From: a virus
Direction: 5' to 3' (one strand)
IMG/VR virus record: IMGVR_UViG_3300028591_000173
Coordinates: 4,799 to 68,798 of that record
DNA: 64,000 bases
The notes below the pieces were generated by a model. The model did not search any database, was not told where the DNA came from, and worked only from the letters and a program-made list of their open reading frames with translations. Below are positions 24,333 to 54,374 of this stretch, in pieces (within the stretch, counting starts at the first letter, position 1; each line of letters opens with the position of its first letter). Made by a program: the position numbers and the translations under genes.

Positions 24333-24340
24333 CACAGGAT

Positions 24341-38416: not shown

Positions 38417-38526
38417 TGGGCTGGGATATCCTCGGGATATGGCAGCTCGCGTTCATAATGGCCGCCATCCTGTTCCTGATAGGGATCGGACTGGGCATGG
38501 CCGCGAAAGGAAAAAGAAGGAAATGA
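38416..38526 (+). CDS. 36-aa single-TM peptide
   Basis: SD aaggagg 8 nt upstream; ATG overlaps previous TGA. Confidence 0.3.
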   Translation: MGWDILGIWQLAFIMAAILFLIGIGLGMAAKGKRRK

Positions 38527-39474: not shown

Positions 39475-39487
39475 GAGGAAAACCCAT

Positions 39488-39757
39488 ATGAAGAAAGCAA
39501 AAACATTGATCGCGCTGACCGCGATGGCCACGCTCCTCGCCGGATGCGGCTGGAGCAACAAGCAGATATTCGACTTCGACCAGAAGTTCGAGAAAGTCCA
39601 CGTGTTCGCCACGGGGCACTGCTACAGCATCGAGAGCTGGACCGATTACGAGGACGGCGACCAGATCCAGGTCAAGATCGAGGGGAAGGGCACATGCCTG
39701 TTCCACTCGAGCCAGATCGCCCTCATCGCGGACAAATGCCCGTTCTGTGACAGATAG
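39488..39757 (+). CDS. lipoprotein (signal peptide + lipobox LLAGC)
   Basis: MKKAKTLIALTAMATLLAGC. Confidence 0.6.
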   Translation: MKKAKTLIALTAMATLLAGCGWSNKQIFDFDQKFEKVHVFATGHCYSIESWTDYEDGDQIQVKIEGKGTCLFHSSQIALIADKCPFCDR

Positions 39758-39768
39758 GAGGGGCAGGC

Positions 39769-40098
39769 ATGGAAGAGAAAAGAAGATCCATCAAGGACGT
39801 GGTCCGGGAGCTCAGAGGCAGCGAAGACAGCGTGATGATCTCCGACGCGACTAAAGCCGTACTCGGGGGCATCGCCCTGATAGCTGAGAGATCGCCGTCG
39901 CTGAAAAGGCTGAAAGAGCTCGACGTCAAACTCTATAACAGCGTCGTCAACACCGTATTCATGACGACGGTCGTCAACCTTGCCGCGATAGGCAAGACCG
40001 AGGAAGAGGCGAAAAAGCTCATCGGCGAGATAGCGGCCTCCGACGGCGCGGTGGTCGAGGCCGGAATGGTCAAGTGCGTCGACATCAGCGACGCCTAG
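39769..40098 (+). CDS. hypothetical protein
   Basis: SD aggagggg. Confidence 0.5.
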   Translation: MEEKRRSIKDVVRELRGSEDSVMISDATKAVLGGIALIAERSPSLKRLKELDVKLYNSVVNTVFMTTVVNLAAIGKTEEEAKKLIGEIAASDGAVVEAGMVKCVDISDA

Positions 40099-40113
40099 AA
40101 GGGAGAAAAAGCA

Positions 40114-40419
40114 ATGGCAAAGAAAGCAAAAGCGAAGAAAAAATTGGAGAACGAGGTCATCAACCCGTTCACCGAAGAACAGTCGAAAGTCATCGGCAAC
40201 GTCGTGGGTCAGGCGATCCACGCCGCGGTGTGTCTGGCCTACAGAGGCATGTCGGCGCTCATGGACGAGGCCGCCAAAGGGATGGCCACGGGCCAGCTCA
40301 ACGCGCTCCAGGCGTTCGGCATGGTCTCGATGAAGCTCCACGTATTGGGAGACCTTGAGGCCAAGGAGGCCGGGTTCTCGCTGACCGAGGAGAAAGCCGG
40401 GGAGCAGCCGAAGAAATGA
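40114..40419 (+). CDS. hypothetical protein
   Basis: ORF. Confidence 0.5.
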   Translation: MAKKAKAKKKLENEVINPFTEEQSKVIGNVVGQAIHAAVCLAYRGMSALMDEAAKGMATGQLNALQAFGMVSMKLHVLGDLEAKEAGFSLTEEKAGEQPKK

Positions 40420-40682
40420 GCAGATACGAGCCAAAGCGCAAAGAGATCCTGAAAAAAGGCGAAGACGGGTTCGCGTATCTCGACCTCGAACACGTCGGGT
40501 ACAGGACCGTCGGCGAAGCCATAAGAGACATCCAAAAGCACAAAATCGAGAATTGGGTGATCGTGAGGAACGCCAGTGGGCTCTATGACATCTGCGCCAA
40601 ACCCGACACCGGCGGCGAAAGCCTCACCGAAACCCTGAAAAGCGTAATAGAGGGAATCAGATCGGGGAAACACCGACAATGA
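40416..40682 (+). CDS. hypothetical protein
   Basis: ORF. Confidence 0.5.
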   Translation: MSRYEPKRKEILKKGEDGFAYLDLEHVGYRTVGEAIRDIQKHKIENWVIVRNASGLYDICAKPDTGGESLTETLKSVIEGIRSGKHRQ

Positions 40683-41005
40683 AACGCAAGAAAACGTTCG
40701 AGGTCCCCGACGTGGAAGACTTCGAGAGGATAGTGCTCATGTCGATATTCTCCGAGATGATGTTCAAAGCGAGGAAAGGCCGCGAGGCGGAATTCGACTC
40801 ACTGGTTGCCAGCGCATGCAACGCAATGTTCGAAGCGGAGGTCATGGCCTTCATGATGGGGGCGAATCTGCTCCCCAAACCGAACACCGCGGGCGACTTC
40901 ATAAGCGCGTCGCGGTTCTACTTGGCGTGCATCGTGCCGAATCGGCGCACGATAATAACGGTGGCCACGCTGCCGGAGAACCATAAGGAGGAAAACAAAA
41001 AATGA
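40679..41005 (+). CDS. hypothetical protein
   Basis: ORF. Confidence 0.5.
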   Translation: MKRKKTFEVPDVEDFERIVLMSIFSEMMFKARKGREAEFDSLVASACNAMFEAEVMAFMMGANLLPKPNTAGDFISASRFYLACIVPNRRTIITVATLPENHKEENKK

Positions 41006-41346
41006 GCAAACTTGATTTAGACGACGATTTATTAGCCATCATCACGAAAATGAGCGAGGGAAACCCAGGATGCATAACATTCCTCATGGAAGTGATGAAG
41101 AATGTGGATCAGTTCAGATTCATCGAGATGGTCCTGAGGCTTGACAAGGCGGAGCTGTACGGAAGCCATATCTATATGCTATGGAACGACTGCTGCGACA
41201 GGGACCTTGACAAGACCATCGAAATGATTACGAACATAAAAAACGACGATGAGCTCCGCTCCTATGTCATCGATCGCGGCTATGGGAAAAAATACGAGCA
41301 GCAGAAGAGCCCAAAACCCGAGCTCTTCGAGGAGGAAGCGAAATGA
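41002..41346 (+). CDS. hypothetical protein
   Basis: ORF. Confidence 0.5.
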   Translation: MSKLDLDDDLLAIITKMSEGNPGCITFLMEVMKNVDQFRFIEMVLRLDKAELYGSHIYMLWNDCCDRDLDKTIEMITNIKNDDELRSYVIDRGYGKKYEQQKSPKPELFEEEAK

Positions 41347-41744
41347 GCAGACTCACGACCAGAATGAGCATCATGGGGCGCAAGCACGACATCGAGGGCG
41401 GCCAAGCGTACCATTGGAAGGAAAAGCTCAAAGGCTATGACTATTCACTCATAGAAGAAGTTGTGGATAAGTTAGGCGATTTGGAGGATATAGAGGAAGA
41501 GATGGGCTGTCCCATCGAAGTCCTATTCAAAGCCATGAAGCAGGGCTTATTCTACAAAGGATACTCCGGCGATATTAAGGAATTCATGCCGGATGGCTCG
41601 CAATTCATAGCTCCTGATCTGCCTAATGAGGGACTTTTGCTCCTTCACGTAAGCGCCTATGAAGACTGCATCATCATCGAGAAGGGCCTTGCTTTGAACG
41701 GTTACGGAACGGAATGGGCTCTGACCAAGGAGGAACTGCAATGA
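41343..41744 (+). CDS. paralog family A member (C-terminal GYGTEWALTKEELQ)
   Basis: full-length similarity to 51977..52330. Confidence 0.55.
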   Translation: MSRLTTRMSIMGRKHDIEGGQAYHWKEKLKGYDYSLIEEVVDKLGDLEDIEEEMGCPIEVLFKAMKQGLFYKGYSGDIKEFMPDGSQFIAPDLPNEGLLLLHVSAYEDCIIIEKGLALNGYGTEWALTKEELQ

Positions 41745-42130
41745 ACCGCCATAAATTAGAGCCGGCGCATACCCCGCCCCTCGGCACTGTGGAAGACGTC
41801 GAGGCCGTATTCGATAAATACGGCGTCAAGGACCTCAAGGACCTGGACGAGAGGCTCGGCATCTACCAGGCCCTCGCCGACCATGACTACACCGCCGTAG
41901 ACAAGCCCGCCTACGAGGCCATGATGGAGGACATCAAGCGCCTGAGGAGGAAATCCAAGGCCTGCGACATCCTCATCAAAATCGCCTATGAGCACTTCGA
42001 ATGGCACGCGGGGATGAATGCGGTCAAACTCCCCGACAGAACCATCGAATTGGAGGCCGACGATTACGATGCGCTCCGCAAAGAGGTCCTGAGATACTGG
42101 ACGAAGCTGGGCAAGGAGGGTAAGAGATGA
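41741..42130 (+). CDS. hypothetical protein
   Basis: internal ATG of ORF 41714. Confidence 0.5.
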   Translation: MNRHKLEPAHTPPLGTVEDVEAVFDKYGVKDLKDLDERLGIYQALADHDYTAVDKPAYEAMMEDIKRLRRKSKACDILIKIAYEHFEWHAGMNAVKLPDRTIELEADDYDALRKEVLRYWTKLGKEGKR

Positions 42131-42705
42131 CCTATTACGTGGTGAAGGTCGTGGCCCATGGAATCACGATGTATATGACCGATGTCGAGGAAAACGAAGG
42201 CCCTTCCTTCAAAAGCTTTACGATCGGGTACAGCTCGCGTCTGAAAAACGCCAAGAGGTTCGACAAATACCTCGACGCGCTCGAGAGATGCGGCAGGGGC
42301 GACGTCGTCGCGATGGTCGAGGACGGGACCGTCACCGACATGGAATTCAGGCTCGGCGACGTGCGCGTCTATCTCGTCCCGATGCTCCCGGAAGGCGTCG
42401 TGATGGAGACCTTCAAGGAAGACAGGGGAGACACGCTCATCCAGTATACGTTCACGGAATCCGAGTGGCTGGCCGTAAAACGCGACAAAGCCGCGTCGGA
42501 GCATTACAGGAAACACATTGCCGCATACGCGAGAAGCAAAGGGATCGAGTCATACCATCTGCATAAGGTGGAGACGAACTCCCGCGGCGCGTTCGATCTC
42601 CTGAGAAAGCAGGGAGAAGGGGAATGCGTGGAGATCTTCAGGATGTCCGAAGAGGACATAATCGCCTCCGGGATCCTGAGATGCCTCACTCCCAAAAAAT
42701 CCTAA
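42127..42705 (+). CDS. hypothetical protein
   Basis: 192-aa ORF. Confidence 0.55.
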   Translation: MTYYVVKVVAHGITMYMTDVEENEGPSFKSFTIGYSSRLKNAKRFDKYLDALERCGRGDVVAMVEDGTVTDMEFRLGDVRVYLVPMLPEGVVMETFKEDRGDTLIQYTFTESEWLAVKRDKAASEHYRKHIAAYARSKGIESYHLHKVETNSRGAFDLLRKQGEGECVEIFRMSEEDIIASGILRCLTPKKS

Positions 42706-42758
42706 AATCCCCGGCAAAACCGCATTATTTTCCGAAAAGAAAGGAGGGCAAAGACCCT

Positions 42759-43007
42759 ATGAGAAAGAAAAAAGACAGACCAAAGAGGCTGACTAGGAAG
42801 GAGTTCCTGACCGGCTGCGAGTACGCCCTGAACCCATGGGCGTCGGGCAACGAGGCCCAGGACAAGCTCGGTCCGATAGAGGACATCGAGGACGAGCTCG
42901 GCATAGACGCCGCGAAGTTCCTCAGATGGGTCCGCAACAACCCGGACAGGCCGATATCCGGCACCGTCTCCGGGCTGATCTCCGCGTTCAGGGGGAAGGC
43001 ATTATGA
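42759..43007 (+). CDS. hypothetical protein
   Basis: SD aaggaggg; internal ATG of ORF 42624. Confidence 0.5.
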   Translation: MRKKKDRPKRLTRKEFLTGCEYALNPWASGNEAQDKLGPIEDIEDELGIDAAKFLRWVRNNPDRPISGTVSGLISAFRGKAL

Positions 43008-43408
43008 GGGAAAGCGTCAGAAAATCGCTCATGGCAGCCTCGTTCGTGGCCGCGATAACCCTGCCCCTCCTCGCGATATGCGGGGCCGCCATCGGGGTCC
43101 GCGCCTCCCACAACTCGGAGAGATCGCTCACCCCGGTCGGCTGGTGCGTCGAGGCGGTGGCCGGCAGAATCGGCACCGACCCCGAAGGCATGCCATACAC
43201 CTATTCCATGATAGAAGGCACGCGCGGGGAGGATTCGGCGGGCTACGCCATCACCGCCTACGCGGCGGGGGCCAAGTCCGACTGGATCTGCCACGTCGAG
43301 TGCCGGACGGACGACTTCTGGTACAGGATGGCCACGTTCGGGGTGAGCTGGGAGAACACCCTATTCAGGGCCGATGAGGTCGCGTCCCTGACTTGCAAGC
43401 GCGTCTAG
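43004..43408 (+). CDS. lipoprotein (lipobox LLAIC)
   Basis: MRESVRKSLMAASFVAAITLPLLAIC. Confidence 0.55.
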   Translation: MRESVRKSLMAASFVAAITLPLLAICGAAIGVRASHNSERSLTPVGWCVEAVAGRIGTDPEGMPYTYSMIEGTRGEDSAGYAITAYAAGAKSDWICHVECRTDDFWYRMATFGVSWENTLFRADEVASLTCKRV

Positions 43409-43482
43409 GGTGTGCCATAATGGGATCCCCAGGTTATCCCCCACCCGTCCTATGCGGGATGGGCATCTGAAAGGGCTGCGCC

Positions 43483-43506
43483 GAGAGCGCGGCTCTTTTT
43501 TGTTTG
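43483..43506 (+). terminator. hairpin GAGAGC-GCG-GCTCTT + TTTTTGTTTG
   Basis: short stem, strong T tract. Confidence 0.45.
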
Positions 43507-43531
43507 CTTTATCATAATTCCAAAAAAACGC

Positions 43532-43560
43532 TTGACTTATATGAATGGAAGAGCGAAAAT
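43532..43560 (+). promoter_or_regulatory. promoter-like TTGACT-N17-GAAAAT
   Basis: weaker -10. Confidence 0.35.
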
Positions 43561-43595
43561 GTCACCGAACCGAAAAAGGAGAAACCGAAATCACA

Positions 43596-43805
43596 ATGAA
43601 AGACGAGAACAAGCAAAGCATCGACAGCCGCGTCGCCATCTATCTCAATGACGACAAGACCTATACGGTCCGCAGAGCCGATAAGGGCTGGACCATACAA
43701 AGCGGCATCAAGACGCCGGATGAGGCGCTCGCCATCAAGAGAGCGTACGTCTTCGGATACATCGACGGCAGAGAGGAAACCAAGGAGGAGCCGAAACAAC
43801 AATGA
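43596..43805 (+). CDS. hypothetical protein
   Basis: internal ATG of ORF 43545. Confidence 0.45.
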   Translation: MKDENKQSIDSRVAIYLNDDKTYTVRRADKGWTIQSGIKTPDEALAIKRAYVFGYIDGREETKEEPKQQ

Positions 43806-44467
43806 ACGAGAATTACGAAAGGGCGATAGCCTTAGCCGAGAGGCTTAAAAACGAGGGGTGGGCCATCCACTCCATCGACGTCGACAAGAGAGAAGTCAAC
43901 ATCAGCAAATACTACGCGAGCCTATCAGTGTGGTTCAGCGTCGAGAGCGAATACCGCGTCAAGATCAGCATCAAAGACGCCTATGAGAGCGAACATTACA
44001 GATACGCCGAATCAGACGAAAACGGCTTCATCGAGACCATCGTCAAGATGCTCAAAGAGTTCAGCCACGACAACTTCCGGCTCGTCACCGTCAACAGATA
44101 CGGCAAGAGCTGGGACGGGCATGACAGATACGAGTTTCGCTATTGCTCAGACGGCTCCTCGCTGATCAAGTCGCTGGTCGACGACCACTACGACAAGTCA
44201 TTGGACAGGGAGAACATATTCTCGCTCGAGAGACACGAGACGCAATACCCGAACCCATTGATGAAACTCATCGTCGAGAGGGTCAGCGGAGTGCCTGACG
44301 AGCTCAGGGACCATTACTTGCTCAAAGAGAGCACGATCATCTTCAAATGCTCCCACATCGAGTACAGGGACAACGGGCAAGGCAAACCTTCCCAAGAGGA
44401 AAGAGAGAGAAGGACCTACTACGCCTTGGTCGACTTCACCCAAAACAAGAACGAAAGAAGAGGATGA
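43802..44467 (+). CDS. hypothetical protein
   Basis: 221-aa ORF. Confidence 0.55.
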   Translation: MNENYERAIALAERLKNEGWAIHSIDVDKREVNISKYYASLSVWFSVESEYRVKISIKDAYESEHYRYAESDENGFIETIVKMLKEFSHDNFRLVTVNRYGKSWDGHDRYEFRYCSDGSSLIKSLVDDHYDKSLDRENIFSLERHETQYPNPLMKLIVERVSGVPDELRDHYLLKESTIIFKCSHIEYRDNGQGKPSQEERERRTYYALVDFTQNKNERRG

Positions 44468-44481
44468 GGAGGAAAACGCGA

Positions 44482-45282
44482 ATGGATGAATTCCACAGAA
44501 GGCTGAACATAGCCAACGAAGGCAAGAAAAGGGTCGCCGACGAGGTGATGAGATTCAACAAGCCCGACACCCTCGTGATCGACCTCGGGGCGGGGACATG
44601 CGTCATAGAGCGCCTTCTCCTTGAGCGCGGGTTCAAAGGGTCGGCATACGCCGTGGACCGGCAGGGGAGCGCCCCTGACTGGATGGCATCCGCCCCCGGC
44701 TTCCTATTCGTGAAAGGCGACATCATAGACAGATTCGCCCCGCTCATGGGCAAGCTCCGCAGGAAAGGCAAGGGCCAGCACGTCGTGTTCGTCCTGTCCG
44801 CCATCCTGCACGAGATGAAGAAAGAGGACAGGGAGGACCTCGCCGCCCTAATCAGGATCGCGTCAAGGCACACCGAGGCGAGGGTCCACCTCATCGTGAG
44901 GGAGGCCGTATACGGCCCGAGCATCGGCTACAGCCCGGAGATCGACGACATCGCCGTCACGAGCAACATCGCCGGATTCGAGAGGAAATGGCTCGAATAC
45001 TCCAAGCTCCACAGATACGAATGGACGCAGGACGTCCTATTCGCCAATTTCTGCTTCGCCCTGTCATACGGCGCCGAGTCGTGGGCCAGGGAGCGCAAGG
45101 AAGGCAGATACACCCTGAGCGAGACCGACCTGCGGGACTTCGTCAGGGCCTGCGGCTGCCACGTCGATGCGGAATGGTCCGAGAAGGATCCGCTCTACGA
45201 GGCGACGCTCCCGTTCGGGCTCTTCGAGGCCCTGCCATACACGAGCAGGGGGTTCGTATGCCACGAAGGAGAGGCACTATGA
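44482..45282 (+). CDS. class I SAM-dependent methyltransferase (motif I VIDLGAGTC)
   Basis: SD gaggagg 9 nt upstream of ATG 44482. Confidence 0.55.
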   Translation: MDEFHRRLNIANEGKKRVADEVMRFNKPDTLVIDLGAGTCVIERLLLERGFKGSAYAVDRQGSAPDWMASAPGFLFVKGDIIDRFAPLMGKLRRKGKGQHVVFVLSAILHEMKKEDREDLAALIRIASRHTEARVHLIVREAVYGPSIGYSPEIDDIAVTSNIAGFERKWLEYSKLHRYEWTQDVLFANFCFALSYGAESWARERKEGRYTLSETDLRDFVRACGCHVDAEWSEKDPLYEATLPFGLFEALPYTSRGFVCHEGEAL

Positions 45283-45641
45283 GTTACGTCAGGACCAAAG
45301 ACGGAAGGCTCTTCGAAGTCTTGAGAAGCGACGGAGAGAACGTTTTCGTCAAGGATTACGATTACGACAACGACGACTGGTACACAAGAACCATAAAATC
45401 GCGCGACGTCAGGCAAGCCGACTCCATCGAGAGGCTCTGCGACGAGTTCGTCGTGCTGGAATACGGGATCGAAAGCGGCGTTCTGTACGGCAGAAGCCAA
45501 TACATCATCCTTGAGGACGCGATAGCCTCGCAGACGTCGACACACAAATGCTCGTATGAGATCTACGGCGCGGTTTGGACGGACAATGGGCTTATCTACA
45601 GAGCCAAGATGAACGAGAAAGGGGAGTTTGAGCTATTATGA
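45279..45641 (+). CDS. paralog family B member (SIERLCDEF ... NEKGEFELL)
   Basis: SD ggagagg. Confidence 0.55.
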   Translation: MSYVRTKDGRLFEVLRSDGENVFVKDYDYDNDDWYTRTIKSRDVRQADSIERLCDEFVVLEYGIESGVLYGRSQYIILEDAIASQTSTHKCSYEIYGAVWTDNGLIYRAKMNEKGEFELL

Positions 45642-45913
45642 CTAAAGGTTTAAAGGCGCTAGGGAGAATCAGGGTCTTCATGAGCCAGAACTGCAAACAT
45701 TGGAAACAGGATATCGGATATGTCGAGGAAGAGCTCAAAGACGGCGCGAAATGCAGAAAAGCCCTTGAGATCATCAAGAACGCGTTAAAAGAAATGGGGC
45801 TTGAATATATTATCAGCAGCGAAACCATGCTCCTTCATGGTGATGACTTCGAAAGAGAATATAAATGCAAATCAGCAGAAGAATTCGATTTACTCAAGGA
45901 GGCGTTGGGATGA
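45638..45913 (+). CDS. hypothetical protein (lower-GC)
   Basis: 91-aa ORF. Confidence 0.5.
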   Translation: MTKGLKALGRIRVFMSQNCKHWKQDIGYVEEELKDGAKCRKALEIIKNALKEMGLEYIISSETMLLHGDDFEREYKCKSAEEFDLLKEALG

Positions 45914-46128
45914 GCAAGAAATCAATAATCAGCATACAAGATAGCGATAGTGAGCTGTGGGATAAAGCCAAAAAGCAAGGCTACATTTGGGTGAAAACCG
46001 AGAGTGGCTTCATCACCAAAGACGAAATGAGCAATTACGCTAAGCTCACAAGCGCATGGTATGGGGTTTTCCCCTCGCAAAAAACCTACGGCAAGACCTG
46101 GGCCCTCACGAAGGAGGAGCTGGAATGA
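45910..46128 (+). CDS. paralog family A member (C-terminal TYGKTWALTKEELE)
   Basis: internal ATG of ORF 45865. Confidence 0.5.
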   Translation: MSKKSIISIQDSDSELWDKAKKQGYIWVKTESGFITKDEMSNYAKLTSAWYGVFPSQKTYGKTWALTKEELE

Positions 46129-46448
46129 GCGCAGAATCGTTCACGTTCGGCGCGAACTGGCTCGGCCCTATGTTCACAGTGTCGCTGAATCCCAGTCCCA
46201 AAGCGAGGTTTGTCGACAAGTATTTCAGAACGCCAGACGGCGAAACATGCTGCGTGTCGTTCGAAGAAAGCACATGGCTTCTGGCGCAAGATCACCCAGA
46301 GATAGCCAAGACGATACGAGAGCTCGAAAGAGAGCATCTGCGTTCGCTCACTGGATCGGAGGTTGGCAACCAGCTAATAAAGATAAGGGCTCCACGAAAA
46401 GTGTTCGAGAGACTCAAAGAATATAATAGGGAGGATCATAGGAAATGA
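46125..46448 (+). CDS. hypothetical protein
   Basis: internal ATG of ORF 46056. Confidence 0.5.
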   Translation: MSAESFTFGANWLGPMFTVSLNPSPKARFVDKYFRTPDGETCCVSFEESTWLLAQDHPEIAKTIRELEREHLRSLTGSEVGNQLIKIRAPRKVFERLKEYNREDHRK

Positions 46449-46684
46449 GCGCATTGGAATACCTTATGGCTTACGGAAGATTCAGGGACGAAACGGACCA
46501 TTGCTCCGACTGCGAGCACCGCGACGCCTGCGACATAGCCGATCAGACGAGCTTCTGCGAGGACTGCAAAGACTTCGGCGACTGCGGCATACTGAAGACC
46601 TGCGAGAAGGGCGAATACGTGGAGTGCAACAACGGATTCGAGCCGAAATACGACGACGGATACGATGAGGAGGAATCGGAATGA
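46445..46684 (+). CDS. Cys-rich acidic small protein
   Basis: 79 aa, about 10 Cys. Confidence 0.5.
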   Translation: MSALEYLMAYGRFRDETDHCSDCEHRDACDIADQTSFCEDCKDFGDCGILKTCEKGEYVECNNGFEPKYDDGYDEEESE

Positions 46685-47073
46685 GCTGTGACAAAGGTTT
46701 TGCGATAAACATAAGCGGCCACGAGTACCGCGTCGTCTGCGAACGCGCCGTCTTCAGGAAAACCGGCGGATTCGACATGGCGCTTCTCATCCGGGTCTTC
46801 GCCGACGGCAAAAAGACGGAGCTGAAGGAAATCGACGGCTACGCCAAAGAGAAGATAAGCGACTACATCGAGAACACCATCAACGGGCAGGACACGCTCT
46901 ATTGGGATCCCGATGGGACGAACAGGCACCTGGACAAGGCTAGGATGCCCACGCAGAAATCGAAAGGCAAGGCTTCTTTCTCCGGGTATTTGAAGAGATT
47001 CTATTCAAACCATTCCCTGAATGCCGGCAAGAAGAAGCGCGTCATCGTCTCGGCGGGAAGGGTCATTTTCTGA
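46681..47073 (+). CDS. hypothetical protein
   Basis: ORF. Confidence 0.5.
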   Translation: MSCDKGFAINISGHEYRVVCERAVFRKTGGFDMALLIRVFADGKKTELKEIDGYAKEKISDYIENTINGQDTLYWDPDGTNRHLDKARMPTQKSKGKASFSGYLKRFYSNHSLNAGKKKRVIVSAGRVIF

Positions 47074-47084
47074 GGAGATCTACT

Positions 47085-47324
47085 ATGAGCTTTAATCAAC
47101 TTGACATTATCACCGTTCCTACTAAGTCTAGCCCAAAGTTGGGTCAGCTGATGGAATACCTTAAAGGTATCGAACATGAGTGCAGACGTACCATCAACAA
47201 ATACGGAATAGCCATTGTGGAGATGAAGATCTATGACAAATGGCATATCATCTATGACTGGGTTTGGAGTCCTATGAATAATCTGACTTATGTCTATTAT
47301 TTCAAAGAAGGGAGCGAAGAATGA
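47085..47324 (+). CDS. hypothetical protein (AT-richer)
   Basis: ORF. Confidence 0.5.
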   Translation: MSFNQLDIITVPTKSSPKLGQLMEYLKGIEHECRRTINKYGIAIVEMKIYDKWHIIYDWVWSPMNNLTYVYYFKEGSEE

Positions 47325-47506
47325 ATAAGCGCCTTAGGACAGGGAAAACCGTCCGCCTGAAAGACACGAGGGACAACAGGATCTACAAATGCGTGGCTTA
47401 TCGCATAAGCAGGAAAAACTACTGCTATCTATGCGCCGATGAGCATCACAGGCCCATCGCTTTTTACCAATACGAGATAGACAAAGGAGATTTCAAGCTG
47501 CTATGA
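47321..47506 (+). CDS. small hypothetical protein
   Basis: ORF. Confidence 0.45.
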   Translation: MNKRLRTGKTVRLKDTRDNRIYKCVAYRISRKNYCYLCADEHHRPIAFYQYEIDKGDFKLL

Positions 47507-47880
47507 ACAAGAAAGAGAAAGCGTTGCTTGACAAGGCAATTCCCTACGACTACAGAAACCCGAAGCCGATGAAGATCTTCTATCTCCTCAACACCCACAG
47601 GCGATACAGGGGGTTCTGGGGCAAGAACGGATACAACAACGTCATCGTGATCGGCACGTACTGGGAAGAGGGCATGGAAGACGAGGTCTTCTACAGGTTC
47701 GACGACTGCAAGGAAAGGGACCTGGTGGAGGTCTTCGTCCAAAAGCATATGTCCGTCGTCAAGCTCGACATCGACGGCAAGTACGACACCATGCGGCTCT
47801 GCCTCGACGAGAGGGTCTTCGTCCCTGAGTACAACCTATCGAACTTCGTCATCCATACGAACGGGGAGGATGGGAAATGA
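47503..47880 (+). CDS. hypothetical protein
   Basis: ORF. Confidence 0.5.
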   Translation: MNKKEKALLDKAIPYDYRNPKPMKIFYLLNTHRRYRGFWGKNGYNNVIVIGTYWEEGMEDEVFYRFDDCKERDLVEVFVQKHMSVVKLDIDGKYDTMRLCLDERVFVPEYNLSNFVIHTNGEDGK

Positions 47881-48077
47881 AGGCAAGCGTATGCAGGAAT
47901 TGCGAGCATTGCAAAAAGCGTTGCTGGGTGCAAAGATACAAGCCTGTTGGGTATCACGCCATCGGCATGGCTCACGCTTACGGGTATTGCTCCGCGCACG
48001 AAAAACGCTGCTCAGAGATAAGCGAATGCGCTGATTTCGAGCAAAAAATACTTTTGATGAATGGAAAGGAGTTATAA
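47877..48077 (+). CDS. Cys-rich small protein
   Basis: 66 aa, CxxCxxC. Confidence 0.5.
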   Translation: MKASVCRNCEHCKKRCWVQRYKPVGYHAIGMAHAYGYCSAHEKRCSEISECADFEQKILLMNGKEL

Positions 48078-48079
48078 AG

Positions 48080-49042
48080 ATGAAGAAAGAATACTTTGAG
48101 AAGATCATCGCCTCCATATGCGACTGCGGCATCAGCAGCGAGAAAATCGAGGAAGCGTTGGTCGACGTCATCCAGCTGGCCGAGAAGAACGGGGACAGGG
48201 AAGTCGCCGAAATCGTCCGCAAGAGAAAGGAGAGCTCCGGCAGGTGCTTCTCCTATGAGGTGACGAGGAAAGACGACTATGGCGGCTATCAGTTCATGCG
48301 CCTCGAGCAGAAGCCCAGCAAACCGCTCATCCTTCCTTTTGGCATCAAGAACGACATCAACAACGCGATAAAAGGCATCAAGAAGAAAGTCGGGATCAAC
48401 CGCGTCATCTTGATCGGAAAACCAGGGACAGGGAAGACAGAAGCGGCGCATCTCTTGGCGGAAAGGCTTGACGCCCACTTCTTCACCATCAACTGCGTCC
48501 AGCTCATCGATTCCAAACTGGGGGAAACGCCCAAGAACATTGTCAAGGTTTTCGAGACCATCAGCCATGCCGACAGACCTACATTGTTCTTCTTCGACGA
48601 GGTGGACAGCATAATCAACAACCGAACCAACTCAAAAGACGTGGAAGAAATGGCCAGAACCGTCACCGCGTTCATGAGAGGGCTTGACCTCACGGAAGAC
48701 AACCCAAACGCAGTCGTCGTGTGCGCCACCAACCTGAACAAGAAACTAGACCAAGCATTGCTTCGCAGGTTCGACATCGAGATAGACATAAGCGACTACG
48801 ACGGAGAGACCTTGGACCGCATCGCCGCCCACTACGTCGATGGCTATTACGGCCCCGGCGCTTACGAAAACGGGGACACGAAAGCGATCAAGGATTACTT
48901 GCGGGAATCCCAGAAGACGATAACCCCCGCCGACATCAGGCTGGCCGCCAAAAGGGCATACGCGTTCGGCTCGGGCGACAGGTTCGACAAATGGTTGCTA
49001 TTGAAGGAGCTCAGAAAAGAGGCGGAAAGGAAAAACCGATGA
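48080..49042 (+). CDS. AAA+ ATPase (classic clade: Walker A GKPGTGKT, Walker B LFFFDEVD, Arg finger ALLRRFD)
   Basis: 320-aa ORF. Confidence 0.75.
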   Translation: MKKEYFEKIIASICDCGISSEKIEEALVDVIQLAEKNGDREVAEIVRKRKESSGRCFSYEVTRKDDYGGYQFMRLEQKPSKPLILPFGIKNDINNAIKGIKKKVGINRVILIGKPGTGKTEAAHLLAERLDAHFFTINCVQLIDSKLGETPKNIVKVFETISHADRPTLFFFDEVDSIINNRTNSKDVEEMARTVTAFMRGLDLTEDNPNAVVVCATNLNKKLDQALLRRFDIEIDISDYDGETLDRIAAHYVDGYYGPGAYENGDTKAIKDYLRESQKTITPADIRLAAKRAYAFGSGDRFDKWLLLKELRKEAERKNR

Positions 49043-49227
49043 GGCAAAGCACGATCTTAACCAGCGAGAAGATAATCGTGAACGGAGTCGAGCTGCCACC
49101 CCTCCCGAACGGCGCGGGATTCACGAACTGCTCCGTCGTGGACAACAGGGTCTTCGTCAACGGCTATGAGCTCAGGAACGGGAAGTGGAAGAAGACGCTC
49201 AGGGCATTGTGGCATAAGCTGTTCTAG
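49039..49227 (+). CDS. small hypothetical protein
   Basis: internal ATG of ORF 48721. Confidence 0.4.
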   Translation: MRQSTILTSEKIIVNGVELPPLPNGAGFTNCSVVDNRVFVNGYELRNGKWKKTLRALWHKLF

Positions 49228-49259
49228 CCCGAAAAACATAAAGAAGTAAAAAAAATTTC

Positions 49260-49289
49260 TTGACCTTTTCATATTTTACATACTAAAAT
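49260..49289 (+). promoter_or_regulatory. sigma70-like promoter TTGACC-N18-TAAAAT
   Basis: hexamers 49260-49265 / 49284-49289. Confidence 0.55.
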
Positions 49290-49319
49290 GTGTACACATA
49301 GAAAAGGGAGGATCCTCAT

Positions 49320-49574
49320 ATGAGAAGAATCACACTGACCGACGGGCAGGCCGAATTGCTCGAAAAGCTCCTCGAACGCGAGATGGACGAGGAATGGCTC
49401 TACCAGATGGACGGATTCAGGGACCCGGCGCACTACAAAGACGTGCTCGGCCTCTACAAAGCCATCCAGCCAAAGCCAAGGAACCTAATCGACGCCCTGA
49501 CCATCGAAGGGCTGACGTCCGATAGGGACAGGGATCTCGCCGAGATCGTCGGAGGGCAGGCCAAATGTTCGTGA
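49320..49574 (+). CDS. hypothetical protein
   Basis: SD aagggagg. Confidence 0.5.
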   Translation: MRRITLTDGQAELLEKLLEREMDEEWLYQMDGFRDPAHYKDVLGLYKAIQPKPRNLIDALTIEGLTSDRDRDLAEIVGGQAKCS

Positions 49575-49714
49575 TAAAAAGCAAAATCGACTACCAGGAA
49601 TACGGCGGATTCGCCACAAAGAAAGAGGCCCGGGCCCGCATACGCGAGCTAAAGAGGTTCGACCGCGAGCAGGGCAACCCCTTCGACGAGGGGTACTTCA
49701 TCGAGGAGGAATGA
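49565..49714 (+). CDS. 49-aa hypothetical protein not in ORF track
   Basis: ATG 49565, fills the gap to 49716. Confidence 0.3.
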   Translation: MFVIKSKIDYQEYGGFATKKEARARIRELKRFDREQGNPFDEGYFIEEE

Positions 49715-49715
49715 G

Positions 49716-49922
49716 ATGAGCCTGAAAGGCATCATGCTGGCCGACGCGATGCTCTCGCTGATGGCCGGGGGCGACCTGCCCTACAAAGAGAGCCCGTACC
49801 TTGCGGCCCCAGCCGACCGAAGATGGAAGGAAAAGAGGCCGAAGGACGGGAAACCGAAGACTAGAGCCGTCTATTACTACGACGAGAAAGGCAACCTGAG
49901 AAGGAAGAAGGAGAAGCTATGA
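49716..49922 (+). CDS. hypothetical protein
   Basis: ORF. Confidence 0.45.
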   Translation: MSLKGIMLADAMLSLMAGGDLPYKESPYLAAPADRRWKEKRPKDGKPKTRAVYYYDEKGNLRRKKEKL

Positions 49923-50293
49923 GATACATCAGAACCGAAAACGGAAAAATCTACGATACCATAGAAGATAAAAGAATAAGGCTTGGACGCAATGATGAGA
50001 CACACGAAATTACCTTCTACCTTTGTGGGGTGAGCGCGTTTTCACCCCATGTTGTCCTAGACGTTATCGACCAAGCCGACACAGTCGACGAGCTCTGCGA
50101 CTGCTACCTCGAGGACTGCGGAAGAGGCGTACCGGCCATAATCACAAAGACGATGTGGGTGGATTTCCACATGGAAAAAGCCTTTAGAGGAGAGACCGCA
50201 TTCTACGCCTGCATAGTCAAGAGAGACGAAAAAGGCACCCATATAAACCCGGTCGCCAAGCTCAACGAAAAGATGGGGTGGGACCTATTATGA
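49919..50293 (+). CDS. paralog family B member (VDELCDCY ... NEKMGWDLL)
   Basis: ORF. Confidence 0.5.
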   Translation: MRYIRTENGKIYDTIEDKRIRLGRNDETHEITFYLCGVSAFSPHVVLDVIDQADTVDELCDCYLEDCGRGVPAIITKTMWVDFHMEKAFRGETAFYACIVKRDEKGTHINPVAKLNEKMGWDLL

Positions 50294-50481
50294 GCAAAGG
50301 CACCAAGGTCTGGTACAGATGGCCGAACGGGCAGATGCAGCGCGTCTACATCTACGAGGACTTCCATATAAAAGGCGAGATATGCCACCGGGGTTCCAGC
50401 GGGCATAGGAGCTTCGTGCTCAAAGACGGCGAGTACGGGAAAAACTGGGCATACACCAAGAAGGATTTCAGGGAGGAATGA
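50290..50481 (+). CDS. small protein with degenerate family A tail (EYGKNWAYTKKDFREE)
   Basis: internal ATG. Confidence 0.45.
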   Translation: MSKGTKVWYRWPNGQMQRVYIYEDFHIKGEICHRGSSGHRSFVLKDGEYGKNWAYTKKDFREE

Positions 50482-50483
50482 GG

Positions 50484-50891
50484 ATGATCGACGGAAAGAA
50501 GGCATTCATAGCGCTAGGCACATGCGTGCTGGCCAAATCCAAGAAATACAACGACGACTCGGCCCGCATCAGACCAAAGGGCGAGGAACGCGATTACTCC
50601 CCCAAAGAGCTGGCGGGGATCGTTCTCGAGGACCTTGAGAGAGGCGAGGGCAACGACAAGATCGGCATAAGCCTCACCAAAGCGGCCAAAGCCATCGACG
50701 CAGGATATATCTGGTTCAAGGAAGAGGGTCGCGAGCCGGAAGAGGCAGAGGTTCTGAGCCTCCTTCGCGGCACTCTCTTCTCGAAGGGCTGGCGCATAGA
50801 GTGCTGCGACATCGACTTCAAGCTGCGCGCGTTTCCCCTTAACGAATACGGCAAGACATGGGCCCTTACGAAGAAGGAGCTGGAGAGATGA
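50484..50891 (+). CDS. paralog family A member (C-terminal EYGKTWALTKKELER)
   Basis: SD ggagg. Confidence 0.5.
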   Translation: MIDGKKAFIALGTCVLAKSKKYNDDSARIRPKGEERDYSPKELAGIVLEDLERGEGNDKIGISLTKAAKAIDAGYIWFKEEGREPEEAEVLSLLRGTLFSKGWRIECCDIDFKLRAFPLNEYGKTWALTKKELER

Positions 50892-51403
50892 GCGAGATAA
50901 AGATAAAAAACAGCCGAGGCCTCATGAGAAGGGTCTACGGCCTCAGCCCCTCGGTCGAGGAGGCCATCGAGAGATTCGCCTCCACAAGCGAGGAGAACCG
51001 CCTCACCATAGAGGAAGCCAAAAGGCTCATCAAAGGGCAGGGCTACGTCAGGACCAAAAGCAGGATCTACAGGCTGGCCAGCCTCAAAGACGGGAAAGCC
51101 CTCGTCTGGAAAGGCTACGAGCTTGTCTGCATCAAAGAGAGCAGCATCCTCAGGAAGGCGGCTTCCATCGAGGAATTGTGCGATGAGTTCGTCCTTTATG
51201 ACCCCTATCCCGACCAACACGAATATTTGGTCAAAATATCAAAGATAAACGGTAAGGTCTATTATGAGTTCCTGACCGGGACGAACAAGAACAGATTCGA
51301 CTGGCAAAGCGGCAGGGAGAGGATCTACGGCGCGATCTGGACCGAAAAGGGCCTCATCTACGTCGCCGCGCTCACCGAGAAAGGAGGCTTCGAGCCGCTA
51401 TGA
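50888..51403 (+). CDS. paralog family B member (SIEELCDEF ... TEKGGFEPL)
   Basis: internal ATG of ORF 50858. Confidence 0.55.
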   Translation: MSEIKIKNSRGLMRRVYGLSPSVEEAIERFASTSEENRLTIEEAKRLIKGQGYVRTKSRIYRLASLKDGKALVWKGYELVCIKESSILRKAASIEELCDEFVLYDPYPDQHEYLVKISKINGKVYYEFLTGTNKNRFDWQSGRERIYGAIWTEKGLIYVAALTEKGGFEPL

Positions 51404-51729
51404 AAGAAGAGATGGAATACGTCCACCACCCGTTGGAGCAGGCTGTGCACAGCCTCGCCTGCCTGGCCACCCCCATCACCAGGATGCCGGGCCTCGTGGA
51501 CAACCTATACAAAGACGCCGAAGAGCAGATCGGGGCGCTCATGAAAGAGCACAAAGCCCTTGGGATCATCAAGAAACACGCAAGAGATATAAAACACTTC
51601 AAATACCTTCTCTACATGGCCAAATATTGGGAGGAGAACGAAATCGAGGTGACGGAAGAGCTTCTATACAATTACGATTTCCCGTATACCGTCGACGAGT
51701 TCAACCTCCTGAAGGAGGAACTGAAATAA
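51400..51729 (+). CDS. hypothetical protein
   Basis: ORF. Confidence 0.5.
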   Translation: MKEEMEYVHHPLEQAVHSLACLATPITRMPGLVDNLYKDAEEQIGALMKEHKALGIIKKHARDIKHFKYLLYMAKYWEENEIEVTEELLYNYDFPYTVDEFNLLKEELK

Positions 51730-51980
51730 TGCCGATAAAACACTGGGCCTTGGGGAGCGCCCGCAGCAAAACCCCCATGCGAATGAGCATCACCATGTCC
51801 AAGCAGACCGACCTGATGGAAAAGGTCGCGGCCAAGCTGGCCGAGGCAGGCATGGAGATCGCCAGGGAAACCCCGGACACGCAGTTTTTCGTCCTGAAAG
51901 ACGAGAACGAGCCGCATATGTGCGTGTCGGCCACGCTTAGGATCATCATCAAGCCAAGGAAGGAGTACATCACGAGATGA
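51729..51980 (+). CDS. hypothetical protein
   Basis: internal ATG of ORF 51627. Confidence 0.45.
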   Translation: MPIKHWALGSARSKTPMRMSITMSKQTDLMEKVAAKLAEAGMEIARETPDTQFFVLKDENEPHMCVSATLRIIIKPRKEYITR

Positions 51981-52330
51981 GAGAAAGAATAACCGAGAAA
52001 ACGAACGGCCATTGGTCTTACAACATAGACCAGGATTTCAGCGAAGACGACGCCGGCGGCTATGGCATCAACTTCGGCTCCCACACGCTGGAGAGCGCGG
52101 TCGAGAAACTTGGCAAGCTGGAGGACTTCGAGGATAAGTTCGACTTCCCCCTCGAAATCCTGCTGAAGGCTTTGACGGAAGGCATCTACGACAAGCGAAG
52201 ATACTACATCGGAAGCTGCATCAGCCTAAGCAACGGGAACATCGGATTATACATCGGCGACCTGGACAGGCTGTTCCTATTCAAGGATTACGGCGAAACC
52301 TGGGCCGCAACAAAGGAGGAACTGGAATGA
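51977..52330 (+). CDS. paralog family A member (C-terminal DYGETWAATKEELE)
   Basis: ORF. Confidence 0.5.
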   Translation: MRERITEKTNGHWSYNIDQDFSEDDAGGYGINFGSHTLESAVEKLGKLEDFEDKFDFPLEILLKALTEGIYDKRRYYIGSCISLSNGNIGLYIGDLDRLFLFKDYGETWAATKEELE

Positions 52331-52515
52331 GAAACGGGCGATTCATGGACGTCACCGAGGCCTACGACGAGATGCTGAACGCGTTCGGAAGGCTCAGGAA
52401 GAACAGCGACCTCGCGATCATGTGCGTGGACGGCAGGTTCGTCCTGGTCAACACCAAAGGCAACAGATTCAGCGTCGTCAAAGAGCTCAAGAAGGTGGGG
52501 GAATGCCACCTATGA
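52327..52515 (+). CDS. small hypothetical protein
   Basis: ORF. Confidence 0.45.
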   Translation: MRNGRFMDVTEAYDEMLNAFGRLRKNSDLAIMCVDGRFVLVNTKGNRFSVVKELKKVGECHL

Positions 52516-52721
52516 GCCTGTGGGAGGAGTTCGAGCTCTCCGAGGACAGGGCCAAGGAGCTCAGGCTCGACGGGCTCAATGAGCCGACCGAGAAAGACTG
52601 CCTCTTCCTGATGTGCTTCATGACCTTCGGCGGGATATGCAGCGAGGAAGAGGTGAGGAAGATAGCCGACATAGCGTACGGCGCGTACGAAAGGAAACGC
52701 CATAAGGAGGAAACGAGATGA
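52512..52721 (+). CDS. small hypothetical protein
   Basis: internal ATG of ORF 52422. Confidence 0.45.
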   Translation: MSLWEEFELSEDRAKELRLDGLNEPTEKDCLFLMCFMTFGGICSEEEVRKIADIAYGAYERKRHKEETR

Positions 52722-52972
52722 GAATCGAGACGAAATTCAATTTAGGCGACAAGTTATACTTCGTCAGGGAGAACAGAATCAACGAAGGAACCGTCAGCGG
52801 GATCGAGATAGACGTCGGCAAAACGAACAAGAAGAAAATCGTGACGGACCTCTCATACCGCGTCTGGAACGGCTCTTCCATGACGATGATCTCCGAGTCA
52901 AGGGCCTTCGCCACGATCGACGAGCTCACAGCGAGCCTCGTCGGCGAGTACAGAAAGGGGGCCAAGCGATGA
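52718..52972 (+). CDS. hypothetical protein
   Basis: ORF. Confidence 0.5.
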   Translation: MRIETKFNLGDKLYFVRENRINEGTVSGIEIDVGKTNKKKIVTDLSYRVWNGSSMTMISESRAFATIDELTASLVGEYRKGAKR

Positions 52973-53337
52973 GCTACAGGCTGGAGAAGATCATAGCCCC
53001 GGACTGCGTCACCCATGGCAGGCCCCGCAAGAGCTTCGAGGAGGCATACAACGAATACCTTTTCGAGGATACGTGGACATCCTCGGCGACCGTCTACCTC
53101 CAAGAGAAGAGGGACGGGGAATGGGTCACCCTCTCAAAGCCCGAGATAGCGAGGCTCTGCCGCAAGGTCAGCGAGCGCGGCGAGATCTCCATCGCCACCG
53201 CCGGCTACACCTACACATTCAGGCTGCCGAAGAAGGTCGAGGTCCCGAGCGACCTCGGCGGGTGGCAGGCCCTCGCATACGTCCTCCTGTCCCTCCTATG
53301 CGACAAGATGGAAACCGAGCCAAGGGAGGGGTTCTGA
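52969..53337 (+). CDS. hypothetical protein
   Basis: ORF. Confidence 0.5.
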   Translation: MSYRLEKIIAPDCVTHGRPRKSFEEAYNEYLFEDTWTSSATVYLQEKRDGEWVTLSKPEIARLCRKVSERGEISIATAGYTYTFRLPKKVEVPSDLGGWQALAYVLLSLLCDKMETEPREGF

Positions 53338-53339
53338 CG

Positions 53340-53636
53340 ATGAGATACGCGAGGATGAGGGACGGCTCGATCATTGAGAGGAAAGCCGGGAACTACGCCA
53401 TCCCAAACCCAGAGGATATCGTCAGGGAATCCGACGACCTGGAGAGCCTCTTCGACGGGATCATATTCAAGGACACCTGCGCGAACAGGCTCCGCTTCGT
53501 CGACATAAACGCCGCGTGGGACATCCTCGGGGCCGCCCTGTTCAAAGAGACCGTAAGGGGATACGTCGAGACCGAGGAGGGCCTCAGGTACGCCGCGAGG
53601 CTCAGCCCAAGCGGGGAAGGGTGGGAGCTGCTATGA
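53340..53636 (+). CDS. family B-like small protein (MRYARMRDG ... GEGWELL)
   Basis: SD gggagggg. Confidence 0.5.
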   Translation: MRYARMRDGSIIERKAGNYAIPNPEDIVRESDDLESLFDGIIFKDTCANRLRFVDINAAWDILGAALFKETVRGYVETEEGLRYAARLSPSGEGWELL

Positions 53637-54373: not shown

Positions 54374-54374
54374 C

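Follow-up and report, generated by a model that had tools for sequence, protein, structure and literature searches.

Family A genes in an array between terminase and portal

We analyzed a window of 64,000 nucleotides (positions 4,799 to 68,798 of the IMG/VR virus record IMGVR_UViG_3300028591_000173) from a GC-rich phage. Between the genes for the large terminase (TerL) and the portal, a gene list with SD sites shows a hyperplastic array of about 52 tightly packed small genes on the + strand (37061..54842). The original prediction placed in this region five diverged copies of a small-protein family with a common C-terminal tail. These five open reading frames, starting at 41343, 45910, 50290, 50484, and 51977, are real, with coordinates, + strand, and translations all as quoted, and we found them to be a true paralogous family, here called family A. 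Every family A copy of the window lies in the array, where only 2 of the 46 other genes have a Pfam match.

The window genes were scored with a family A profile built from unrelated metagenomic members outside this phage, which placed the genes A1, A4, A3, and A2 and one further gene in the metagenomic family. A1 (41343..41744, + strand, 133 amino acids [aa]; profile E value of 1e-26, 47 homologues) is full-length, with an N-terminal module (N-module) in codons 1 to 42, a linker in codons 43 to 69 (41469-41549), a variable middle in codons 70 to 118, and the tail from 41703. A4 (51977..52330, + strand, 117 aa; profile E value of 8e-19) is also full-length, with an N-module of its own and a short middle. 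A1 and A4 had been said to align over their whole length; the likeness holds for the linker and the tail (BLASTP E value of 4e-9) but not for the 36 N-terminal residues or the middles, and the alignment spans a 37-residue gap. A3 (50484..50891, + strand, 135 aa; profile E value of 6e-9) consists of a divergent linker, LEDLERGEGNDKIGISLTKAAKAIDAG, a middle, and the tail, and of its two candidate starts, 50484 and the ATG at 50478, the former agrees better with the spacing from the SD. A2 (45910..46128, + strand, 72 aa) matches the profile with its C-terminal half only (E value of 3e-6, profile positions 55 to 110); lacking the N-module and the first helix, it is composed of the second helix of the linker, a short middle segment, and the tail. 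As proposed, A2 and A3 have GYIW(V/F)K in common in addition to the tail (BLASTP E value of 1e-6). A5 (50290..50481, + strand, 63 aa) is a beta-rich segment followed by a degenerate tail, YGKNWAYTKKDF; judged by a profile E value of just 0.03 over the tail alone, with the motif present, it appears to be the weakest member. A sixth gene, which was not on the original list, is an N-half-only member of 82 aa (42759..43007, + strand; profile E value of 4e-7, profile positions 2 to 45) with the RLT motif, an N-module, and KLGPIEDIEDELGID but neither barrel nor tail.

In the window, the codons for the KEEL(E) end of the tail double as the ribosome-binding site and the ATGA start of the gene that follows. 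The last codons of the A1 tail (41703..41744, + strand), AAGGAGGAACTGCAATGA, provide the SD, the spacer, and the ATG of the gene at 41741. Those of A2 (46087..46128, + strand), AAGGAGGAGCTGGAATGA, provide the SD and ATGA start of the gene at 46125, and those of A4 (52289..52330, + strand), AAGGAGGAACTGGAATGA, do the same for the gene at 52327. In the A5 tail (50434..50481, + strand), AGGGAGGAATGAGGATG contains the SD for A3 at 50484, and in the A3 tail (50847..50891, + strand), AAGAAGGAGCTGGAGAGATGA contains the SD and ATGA start of a gene at 50888 that belongs to a second family, B. The family B copies are B1 (45279..45641, + strand) and the genes at 49919-50293, 50888-51403, and 53340-53636; a third family, C, comprises C1 (45638..45913, + strand) and the genes at 41741-42130 and 51400-51729. 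Two runs of window genes have the order B-C-A (45279-46128 and 50888-52330), and in other phages B is often directly upstream of A.

Layout and predicted fold

Family A proteins share one order of parts: MxRLTxK, a variable N-module of 20 to 40 aa, the invariant linker KLGxLEDIEEELGIDLITLFKALKNG, a variable middle of 27 to 160 aa, and the invariant tail KDYGKTWALTKEELE. At the N terminus, R3, L4, and T5 are invariant at ≥90%. AlphaFold gave the same fold for two proteins with unrelated middles, namely, two helices followed by a five-stranded barrel formed by the middle and the tail and resembling, at the level of prediction, Tudor/SH3-like small beta-barrels. For A1, the mean pLDDT was 81, with about 90 across residues 40 to 133, and the extreme N terminus of family A has low confidence (about 50 to 70). 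In the models, the tail makes up a 3-10 turn, the final strand, and a helix that caps the barrel. It is the best-predicted part of the fold in the two independent models (pLDDT of 92 to 96).

The tail had also been considered as a shared degradation or interaction tag, and structure prediction of the C-terminal module had been proposed as a check; the models show it folded, with a defined strand and helix. It is seen only together with the barrel. In 229 proteins it lies 4 to 15 residues from the C terminus, with 0 to 11 more residues after EELE in the nonfused proteins, and in 8 tandem fusions it is internal. Going by these predictions, the tail does not look like the disordered, exposed, free C terminus of a degradation or adaptor tag, and the models together with the eight fusions argue against a free C-terminal degradation or targeting signal. 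Known counterparts of such tags are SspB-type adaptors and ssrA-like sequences. A degradation or adaptor tag read by the AAA ATPase of the array was rejected: this ATPase is unmatched by any gene in the 20-kb locus of a related phage, L001, and the tail is predicted to be folded and can be internal. The tail thus appears to be built into the fold and to act as a recombination joint rather than as a free tag. Many charged residues of tail and linker are invariant and may together make up a common surface for interaction.

Exchange of segments between genes and phages

N-modules and middles assort independently, and comparison with two close relatives places the DNA breakpoints within the linker and at the tail. 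Compared with its L001 ortholog, A1 has 88% nucleotide identity over 41341-41532, none over 41533-41714, and identity again from 41715; the middle segment (41533..41714, + strand) is replaced in L001 by unrelated sequence. Core genes near A1 have 85 to 99% protein identity to L001, and the gene content of the array past 45.3 kb is unlike that of L001. A cassette of A1 running from linker to tail (41484..41735, + strand) has 92% nucleotide identity to positions 6106-6357 of another related phage, L021, where it stands behind an unrelated N-module and at another array position, with no similarity on either flank. The N-half-only gene at 42759-43007 is 98.8% identical to its L001 counterpart and is therefore maintained. 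Copy numbers, which were to be compared across relatives, differ even between close ones: the window has five copies plus the N-half gene, L001 has three plus the N-half gene, and the related L005 has five.

The idea of a diversifying family thus stands insofar as the nonconserved parts change extremely fast, but they do so mainly by wholesale segment swaps rather than by point substitution. As neither middles nor N-modules can be aligned, a dN/dS value for the copies would have no meaning; we used codon identity at conserved residues instead. Where copies have the same residue, they also have the same codon in 43 of 78 cases (a tally of pair counts), near what codon usage alone predicts, so the residues have been kept while the DNA drifted. 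Synonymous sites of the tail are saturated, and conservation therefore acts on the protein. With regard to diversity-generating retroelements, the variable parts show whole-segment replacement, not adenine-specific substitution, and no reverse transcriptase was found among the gene products scanned in the window, a scan that covered 1-37 kb and 55-64 kb in part.

Distribution, alternatives, and proposed role

Clustering of family A at 90% identity gives at least 5,598 clusters, and clustering at 50% identity gives at least 2,717. The family is found only in metagenomic phage contigs, with up to five or six copies in each related phage. It is very large, unnamed, and uncharacterized, and its proteins, 100 to 140 aa long, are encoded by uncultured phages of Firmicutes from gut and rumen. 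We did not find it in Pfam, PHROGs, NCBIfam, PDB sequences, or 50,697 GenBank phages. For the five window proteins, no Pfam-A match came near its curated threshold (the best was A1, with an E value of 0.012 and 16 bits versus a 26-bit cutoff), and PHROGs v4 gave nothing below an E value of 0.08. When 51 diverse members were searched against Pfam-A, PHROGs v4, and NCBIfam 20, at most one member matched any one family, with E values of ≥0.0015. Megablast of the region against GenBank phages found no cultured relatives, and tblastn of a typical A member and two B members against the same phages found no hits. An exact look-up of the A1 protein likewise found no record of it. A GTDB scan gave 12 loci, all on contigs of metagenome-assembled genomes, and identified no isolate host or prophage. 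LoVEphage, a 71-kb temperate Bacteroides phage (PMC8525569), was ruled out as the source clade, and a literature search for the family A motif strings found none.

Could the tails merely resemble each other by chance? All that favors this is the general E/K richness of protein ends in the array, which is due to embedded SD sites. The pattern YG..W..TK has exactly five matches in the six-frame translation of the window, each 1 to 4 residues ahead of a stop, versus a mean of 0.01 expected from mononucleotide shuffles and 0.002 from residue shuffles of the open reading frames. With the significant profile matches of the window copies and the same tail in thousands of homologues, compositional likeness among unrelated small open reading frames is refuted and practically negligible as an explanation. 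It is also very improbable that the tail is kept for DNA or RNA reasons, that is, as a ribosome-binding site with translational coupling to the next gene or through recent gene conversion. In all five window copies, KEEL(E) and the stop are encoded by AAGGAGGAnCTGnAATGA or an equivalent, with SD, spacer, and overlapping start, but this could account for the last 4 to 5 residues only and gives no role to the YGKTWALT stretch. Moreover, AAG and GAG are preferred codons of this genome anyway, and low-GC relatives (about 30% GC) retain KEELE in the protein, often with 1 to 11 further residues after it. Since codon identity between copies is at chance level, there was no recent conversion, and the codon comparisons rule out gene conversion or other conservation at the DNA level. 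DNA or RNA reasons are thus largely refuted as the main cause. What is left of them is an additional constraint that acts locally, at the last codons. Equally doubtful is a DNA-binding winged helix of the Xis/AlpA/HTH_17 type with an enlarged wing, in which ELGIDLITLFKALKNG would be the helix-turn-helix and G..W.L...EL the wing strand and last helix. Likeness to HTH_17 by eye and a compatible order of helices and strands make this a lead only, and no HTH_17, Xis, or AlpA profile matched family A over helix-turn-helix plus wing.

Two further readings give the invariant parts a function in assembly or targeting. Linker and tail could be subunit interfaces, with complexes of A and the neighbor-encoded B (and C) as the functional unit. 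This agrees with the repeated B-C-A order and with the build of B and C, in which variable segments likewise alternate with invariant joints. Of 82 A genes, 37 have a B gene within 3 kb, and for 11 to 13 of the 82 a B stop overlaps the A start (ATGA); among 46 A-carrying contigs B is present in 21 and C in 17. We nevertheless regard such complexes as unlikely: for about half of the A genes, no B could be detected within 10 kb, fusions of A with B were not seen, and adjacency may reflect the abundance of all three families in the same arrays. Alternatively, the conserved ends (MxRLTxK, the tail, or both) might be signals that direct a varied set of small effectors to the capsid, from which they would be injected along with the DNA. 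The same logic is known from the T-even internal proteins, a diverse defense-countering set with only a conserved targeting sequence in common, in which IPI*, at least, acts against a restriction enzyme of the host (PMC3012670). The invariance and low model confidence of the extreme N terminus and the position of the array between terminase and portal would fit. Against this, about 50 conserved residues that are predicted to be folded far exceed the size of a signal peptide, the tail can be internal, and terminator/promoter-like pairs suggest operons apart from the head genes; we consider capsid targeting quite improbable.

The T-even internal proteins IPI, IPII, IPIII, and their polymorphic relatives are, like family A, small and highly diverse phage accessory proteins with several copies per genome, a complement that varies between close relatives, and a short invariant peptide in an otherwise variable sequence. 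However, they share only the N-terminal capsid-targeting sequence, whereas family A has three invariant blocks, together about 50 residues, which lie in the predicted fold on either side of two segments that are swapped independently of each other. No relation in sequence or fold between the two was found. In T4-type hyperplastic regions, whole genes are moved by PeSLs, DNA cassettes of promoter and stem-loop that lie between genes (PMC2839356). As with family A, the region is rich in small nonessential genes, and short conserved repeats are recombination points that reshuffle its content between close relatives (PMC2839356). Family A joints, in contrast, are inside genes, are conserved in peptide sequence despite drift of the DNA, and reshuffle protein segments. 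Tad2-like (PF11195) Thoeris anti-defense proteins occur in the same arrays as family A and have no sequence relation to it. In one phage (L009), a Tad2-like gene lies 1.8 kb downstream of an A gene, and in another (L040), a family A unit continues without a stop codon into a Tad2-like domain (E value of 3e-23). This fusion is unique among 424 matches, and the nearest A relatives end at the tail; as it occurs on one contig only, we rejected it as a recurrent "Rosetta stone" and take it to show neighborhood only.

The explanation that we favor, with some reserve, is a shuffled modular phage family in which the tail is both a fold part and a crossover joint. Each protein would be made of three invariant peptides, MxRLTxK, the two-helix linker, and the C-terminal KDYGKTWALTKEELE, bracketing two swappable segments. 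A middle of any sequence would form the five-stranded Tudor/SH3-like barrel, to which the tail would supply a 3-10 turn, the closing strand, and the capping helix, so that it would belong to the fold and not hang free. Being invariant, linker and tail would also be the crossover points at which paralogues, and likewise different phages, trade N-modules and middles, giving many combinations. The SD and ATGA sites in the KEEL(E) codons would add a second, local constraint but would not be what causes the conservation. The invariant charged parts may be a constant handle for a common partner, with the variable barrel and N-module as specificity-determining heads. The proteins would then be accessory host-interaction factors for takeover or counter-defense, encoded in a hyperplastic array with host-type promoters. 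Such a role, which the original prediction had raised, is suggested by just the location in a hyperplastic accessory array and the Tad2-like neighbors in the two other phages.

Thousands of "hypothetical" gut virome proteins belong to this one family, which now has a domain map, a predicted fold, and an evolutionary rule of invariant joints with independently assorting segments. This makes a defined target of what was dark matter, and heads can be swapped on the constant scaffold to probe binding. The same build in B and C suggests a general route of accessory-gene diversification in these phages. Speculatively, and with rather low probability, A, B, and C together might be a recombination-driven repertoire, in which binding modules recombine freely at invariant joints into a combinatorial library of counter-defense or takeover binders. 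If so, each lineage of a major clade of uncultured gut Firmicutes phages would carry different heads on a constant handle. If the heads recognize targets in host defense or takeover, many new inhibitors could be drawn from the family. It would also be one of the few examples of protein-domain shuffling whose joints are legible straight from sequence.

A large family of small phage proteins

Five plus-strand ORFs of the window's small-gene array, A1 (41343-41744), A2 (45910-46128), A3 (50484-50891), A4 (51977-52330), and A5 (50290-50481), had been proposed to be paralogs sharing a conserved C-terminal tail. All five were located in the array, with translations matching those originally quoted, and the shared tail was confirmed: in six-frame translation the pattern YG..W..TK occurs five times, each 1 to 4 residues before a stop codon. 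Nucleotide shuffles gave an expectation of 0.01 and residue shuffles within ORFs one of 0.002, so a merely compositional likeness is contradicted and chance was rejected as the source of the tail. BLASTP links A1 with A4 (E 4e-9) and A2 with A3 (E 1e-6), and a short helix, KA.K.G(Y/I).W.K, lies ahead of the variable part in all five. Family A is a real, very large, and unnamed family of paralogs.

A1 has 47 metagenomic homologs. Searched against 1.84 billion proteins, the profile made from them retrieved 2,717 representatives (50% identity), of which 1,383 had E ≤ 1e-10, and a second family A profile yielded 5,598 or more clusters at 90% identity. Among the members listed in two family A searches, all but one come from metagenome assemblies only, no precomputed Pfam domain is given for any of them, and the sole source name is "hypothetical protein." The window's family A proteins and 51 diverse members had no match in Pfam, PHROGs, NCBIfam, or PDB sequences, tblastn of 50,697 GenBank phage records found none, and membership in any named family was not demonstrable. 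The 185,579 GTDB species genomes hold only 12 loci, all on MAG contigs of 2 to 77 kb, from bins of Clostridia, Bacilli, or Erysipelotrichaceae, plus one Ruminobacter. IMG/VR holds at least 35 loci, on contigs of 9 to 161 kb with mostly 26 to 35% GC; a GC-rich branch is formed by the window phage, at 55% GC, together with two related metagenomic viral contigs, L001 and L021. The window terminase is only ~25 to 30% identical to that of any cultured phage. Copy number, which the original prediction suggested checking across related phages, varies: five plus the weak member A5 in the window, five within 20 kb in L005, four each in L001 and L042, three each in L036 and L045, and a single copy at many loci.

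Invariant joints and shuffled segments

Alignments resolve three near-invariant blocks with two unalignable blocks between them: an N-terminal MxRLTxK, a variable N-module, the linker KLGxLEDIEEELGIDLITLFKALKNG, a variable middle of 27 to 161 residues (median, 45), and the tail KDYGKTWALTKEELE. Among the window copies, which dissect this plan naturally, A1 and A4 are complete. A3 has a divergent linker, A2 lacks everything before the second linker helix and retains only that helix, the middle, and the tail, and A5 retains a beta-rich segment and a degenerate tail. The gene at 42759-43007 comprises the N-terminal half only; its 98.8% identity to the corresponding gene of L001 indicates that it is maintained. 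A tail without a middle was never seen. Some members (L017 9734-10243, L050 9809-10396, and the metagenomic proteins P0022 and P0028) have an extra helical insert between KLGxLED and IEEELGIDL; since the insert splits the linker, the linker itself consists of two separable halves.

Among 244 family A proteins cut at the invariant blocks, a sample picked by profile score so that counts illustrate the pattern and not frequencies, 556 pairs combine unrelated middles with N-modules of at least 75% identity, and 208 pairs combine unrelated N-modules with middles of at least 55% identity. Clustering gave 178 combinations of 116 N-types with 131 middle types; one N-type occurs with 23 different middles and one middle with 9 N-types. 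At the DNA level, two cases concern the window itself. L001, whose core genes have 85 to 99% protein identity to those of the window, carries an A1 ortholog with 88% nucleotide identity through codon 63 and none over codons 64 to 124, resuming at the tail W. L021 has 77 to 93% nucleotide identity to the window over 42.4-45.6 kb, and a gene elsewhere in its array has an unrelated N-module followed by 92% identity to A1 that starts at codon 48, within LEDIEEE, continues to the tail, and stops with the gene. These breakpoints therefore place crossovers within the linker and at the tail. The two variable segments assort independently, with breakpoints in the joints.

Family B, a second paralogous small-protein family of the array (45279-45641, 49919-50293, 50888-51403, and 53340-53636), is clearly of the same build, with invariant joints around variable segments (MKYIRTKDGxIY, variable, QADTIEELCDEFV, variable, IYGAIWTDKGLIYVAKMNEKGELELL), and has no Pfam, PHROG, or GenBank-phage match. 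Family C, a third paralogous family (41741-42130, 45638-45913, and 51400-51729; motif KALEIIK ... EEFDLLKEAL or, more generally, KALxIIK followed by an (E/D)EF(D/N)LLKE(A/E)L tail), appears to share it. Many unrelated viral contigs have family B immediately upstream of family A, the two genes overlapping at ATGA, and a B-gene stop overlaps the start of 11 to 13 of 82 A genes. Among 46 A-carrying contigs, 21 have family B and 17 family C, and the order B-C-A occurs twice in the window (45279-46128 and 50888-52330). At 4811-5014 of L021, a 67-amino-acid gene combines the tail of family C (...AVEELCDESDLLKEALE) with a family B N-terminal half and is apparently a recombinant formed at a short shared E-E-F/D motif.

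Predicted fold and constraints on the joints

AlphaFold2 models were obtained for A1 (pLDDT 81; ~90 over residues 40 to 133) and for P0093, a metagenomic member with a middle unrelated to A1's (pLDDT 87; pTM 0.77). Both have the same order of elements: a low-confidence N-terminal region (pLDDT ~50 to 70), helices of 20 and then 10 residues, five strands, a 3-10 turn, a short final strand, and a helix of four residues. The predicted fold is two helices and a Tudor/SH3-like barrel closed by the tail. The tail, which has the highest confidence within the P0093 model, is there modeled as a 3-10 turn (FKD), Y, a G-K-T turn, a strand (WA), and an N-cap and helix (T-KEEL). It probably packs against the linker, judging from the order of secondary structure and the hydrophobic pattern (L..L..I...L in helix 1; Y, W, L, and L in the tail). 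The tail had also been suggested to be a degradation tag. The motif lies 4 to 15 residues from the C terminus in 229 family proteins, and 8 tandem A-A fusions have it at an internal position, where it continues into the following unit; these internal tails and the high model confidence argue against a degron or a peptide dependent on a free C terminus.

Over the ten pairs of window tails, 78 identical residue positions are degenerate, and the codon is shared in 43 (55%; summed per-pair counts), where codon usage alone predicts ~0.35 to 0.66 per residue. Between paralogs of one phage (L001, L005, or the window phage), the linker and tail DNA shows just ~60 to 75% identity, and less against the divergent linker of A3, with no sign of recent gene conversion. 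As judged from these comparisons, tail and linker residues are under strong purifying selection and are conserved at the protein level. The last codons of all five window copies, AAGGAGGAnCTGnAATGA or equivalent, supply the Shine-Dalgarno sequence and spacer for the next gene and include its overlapping start. In the window phage this dual use places a genuine second constraint on the final four or five tail residues. It does not account for YGKTWALT, and low-GC relatives (~30% GC) retain KEELE, often with further residues after it; DNA-level explanations were largely rejected as the main cause of tail conservation.

The small-gene array and a proposed role

Tail and head-morphogenesis genes occupy 1-20 kb of the window, followed by a tRNA cluster (23.4-24.4 kb), a D5/NrS-1-type primase with helicase (24.4-28.3 kb), the large terminase (Terminase_3, E 7e-29; 35400-36947), and the portal (phrog_533, E 2e-52; 57259-58896). 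The cluster (23418-24414) has eight tRNAs, seven with wobble C anticodons (CGG, CCC, CCT, CTG, CAG, CGT, and CGC), which would read G-ending codons, and one for Met; a tRNA-Ile(TAT) lies at 31238-31314 and an odd tRNA call with a two-base anticodon at 32644-32716. In most tailed phages the terminase and portal genes adjoin closely. Here ~18 kb of small accessory genes separates them, which is an unusual arrangement.

The array comprises ~52 tightly packed small genes on the plus strand (37.1-54.8 kb). Nearly all have a strong Shine-Dalgarno sequence embedded in the 3' end of the gene before them, and many have ATGA stop/start overlaps. Two of the array's three short intergenic gaps (36946-37030 and 43469-43560) contain terminator-like stems with T-runs and, after them, sigma-70-like promoters; the third has a promoter-like site (49260-49289). 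These signals suggest three operons, with a promoter count not above the shuffled expectation. Pfam matches were found in only 2 of the 46 other array genes, an AAA ATPase and an ASCH-related DUF3850 gene (37967-38254). A 246-amino-acid protein (53633-54373) without a Pfam match looks ASCH-like from its sequence, and its cluster is present in 18 of the 46 A-carrying contigs. Because array content beyond 45.3 kb differs between the window and L001, the array is a hyperplastic region.

One family A unit, at L040 9971-10621 (IMGVR_UViG_3300045988_178329), runs without a stop into a Tad2-like Thoeris anti-defense domain (PF11195, E 3e-23), with an internal Shine-Dalgarno sequence and ATG before the Tad2 part; its close A relatives end at the tail. 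A second Tad2-like ORF (L009 12127-12420) lies 1.8 kb after an A gene. As no further A-Tad2 fusion was found among 424 matches, the fusion counts as neighborhood evidence only.

A winged-helix regulator reading of family A was not supported. The many invariant charged residues of the linker and tail would form a constant interaction surface, a handle on which the variable barrel and N-module would be specificity heads, and family A proteins may be accessory host-interaction or counter-defense factors. Two rival readings of the joints are less probable: the conserved ends could be targeting signals like those of T-even internal proteins, in which a conserved targeting peptide is found on diverse anti-restriction effectors (PMC3012670), or the linker and tail could be subunit interfaces with family B or C. 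These internal proteins and the PeSL-mediated shuffling of T4-type hyperplastic regions (PMC2839356) are the nearest analogs in logic. Unlike in both T4-type systems, the joints of family A lie within genes and are conserved as peptides despite drift of their DNA, and protein parts are shuffled, not whole genes. We place family A among the modular accessory genes of phage hyperplastic regions, where it is noteworthy for its size, its complete absence of annotation, and its unusually legible shuffling architecture.
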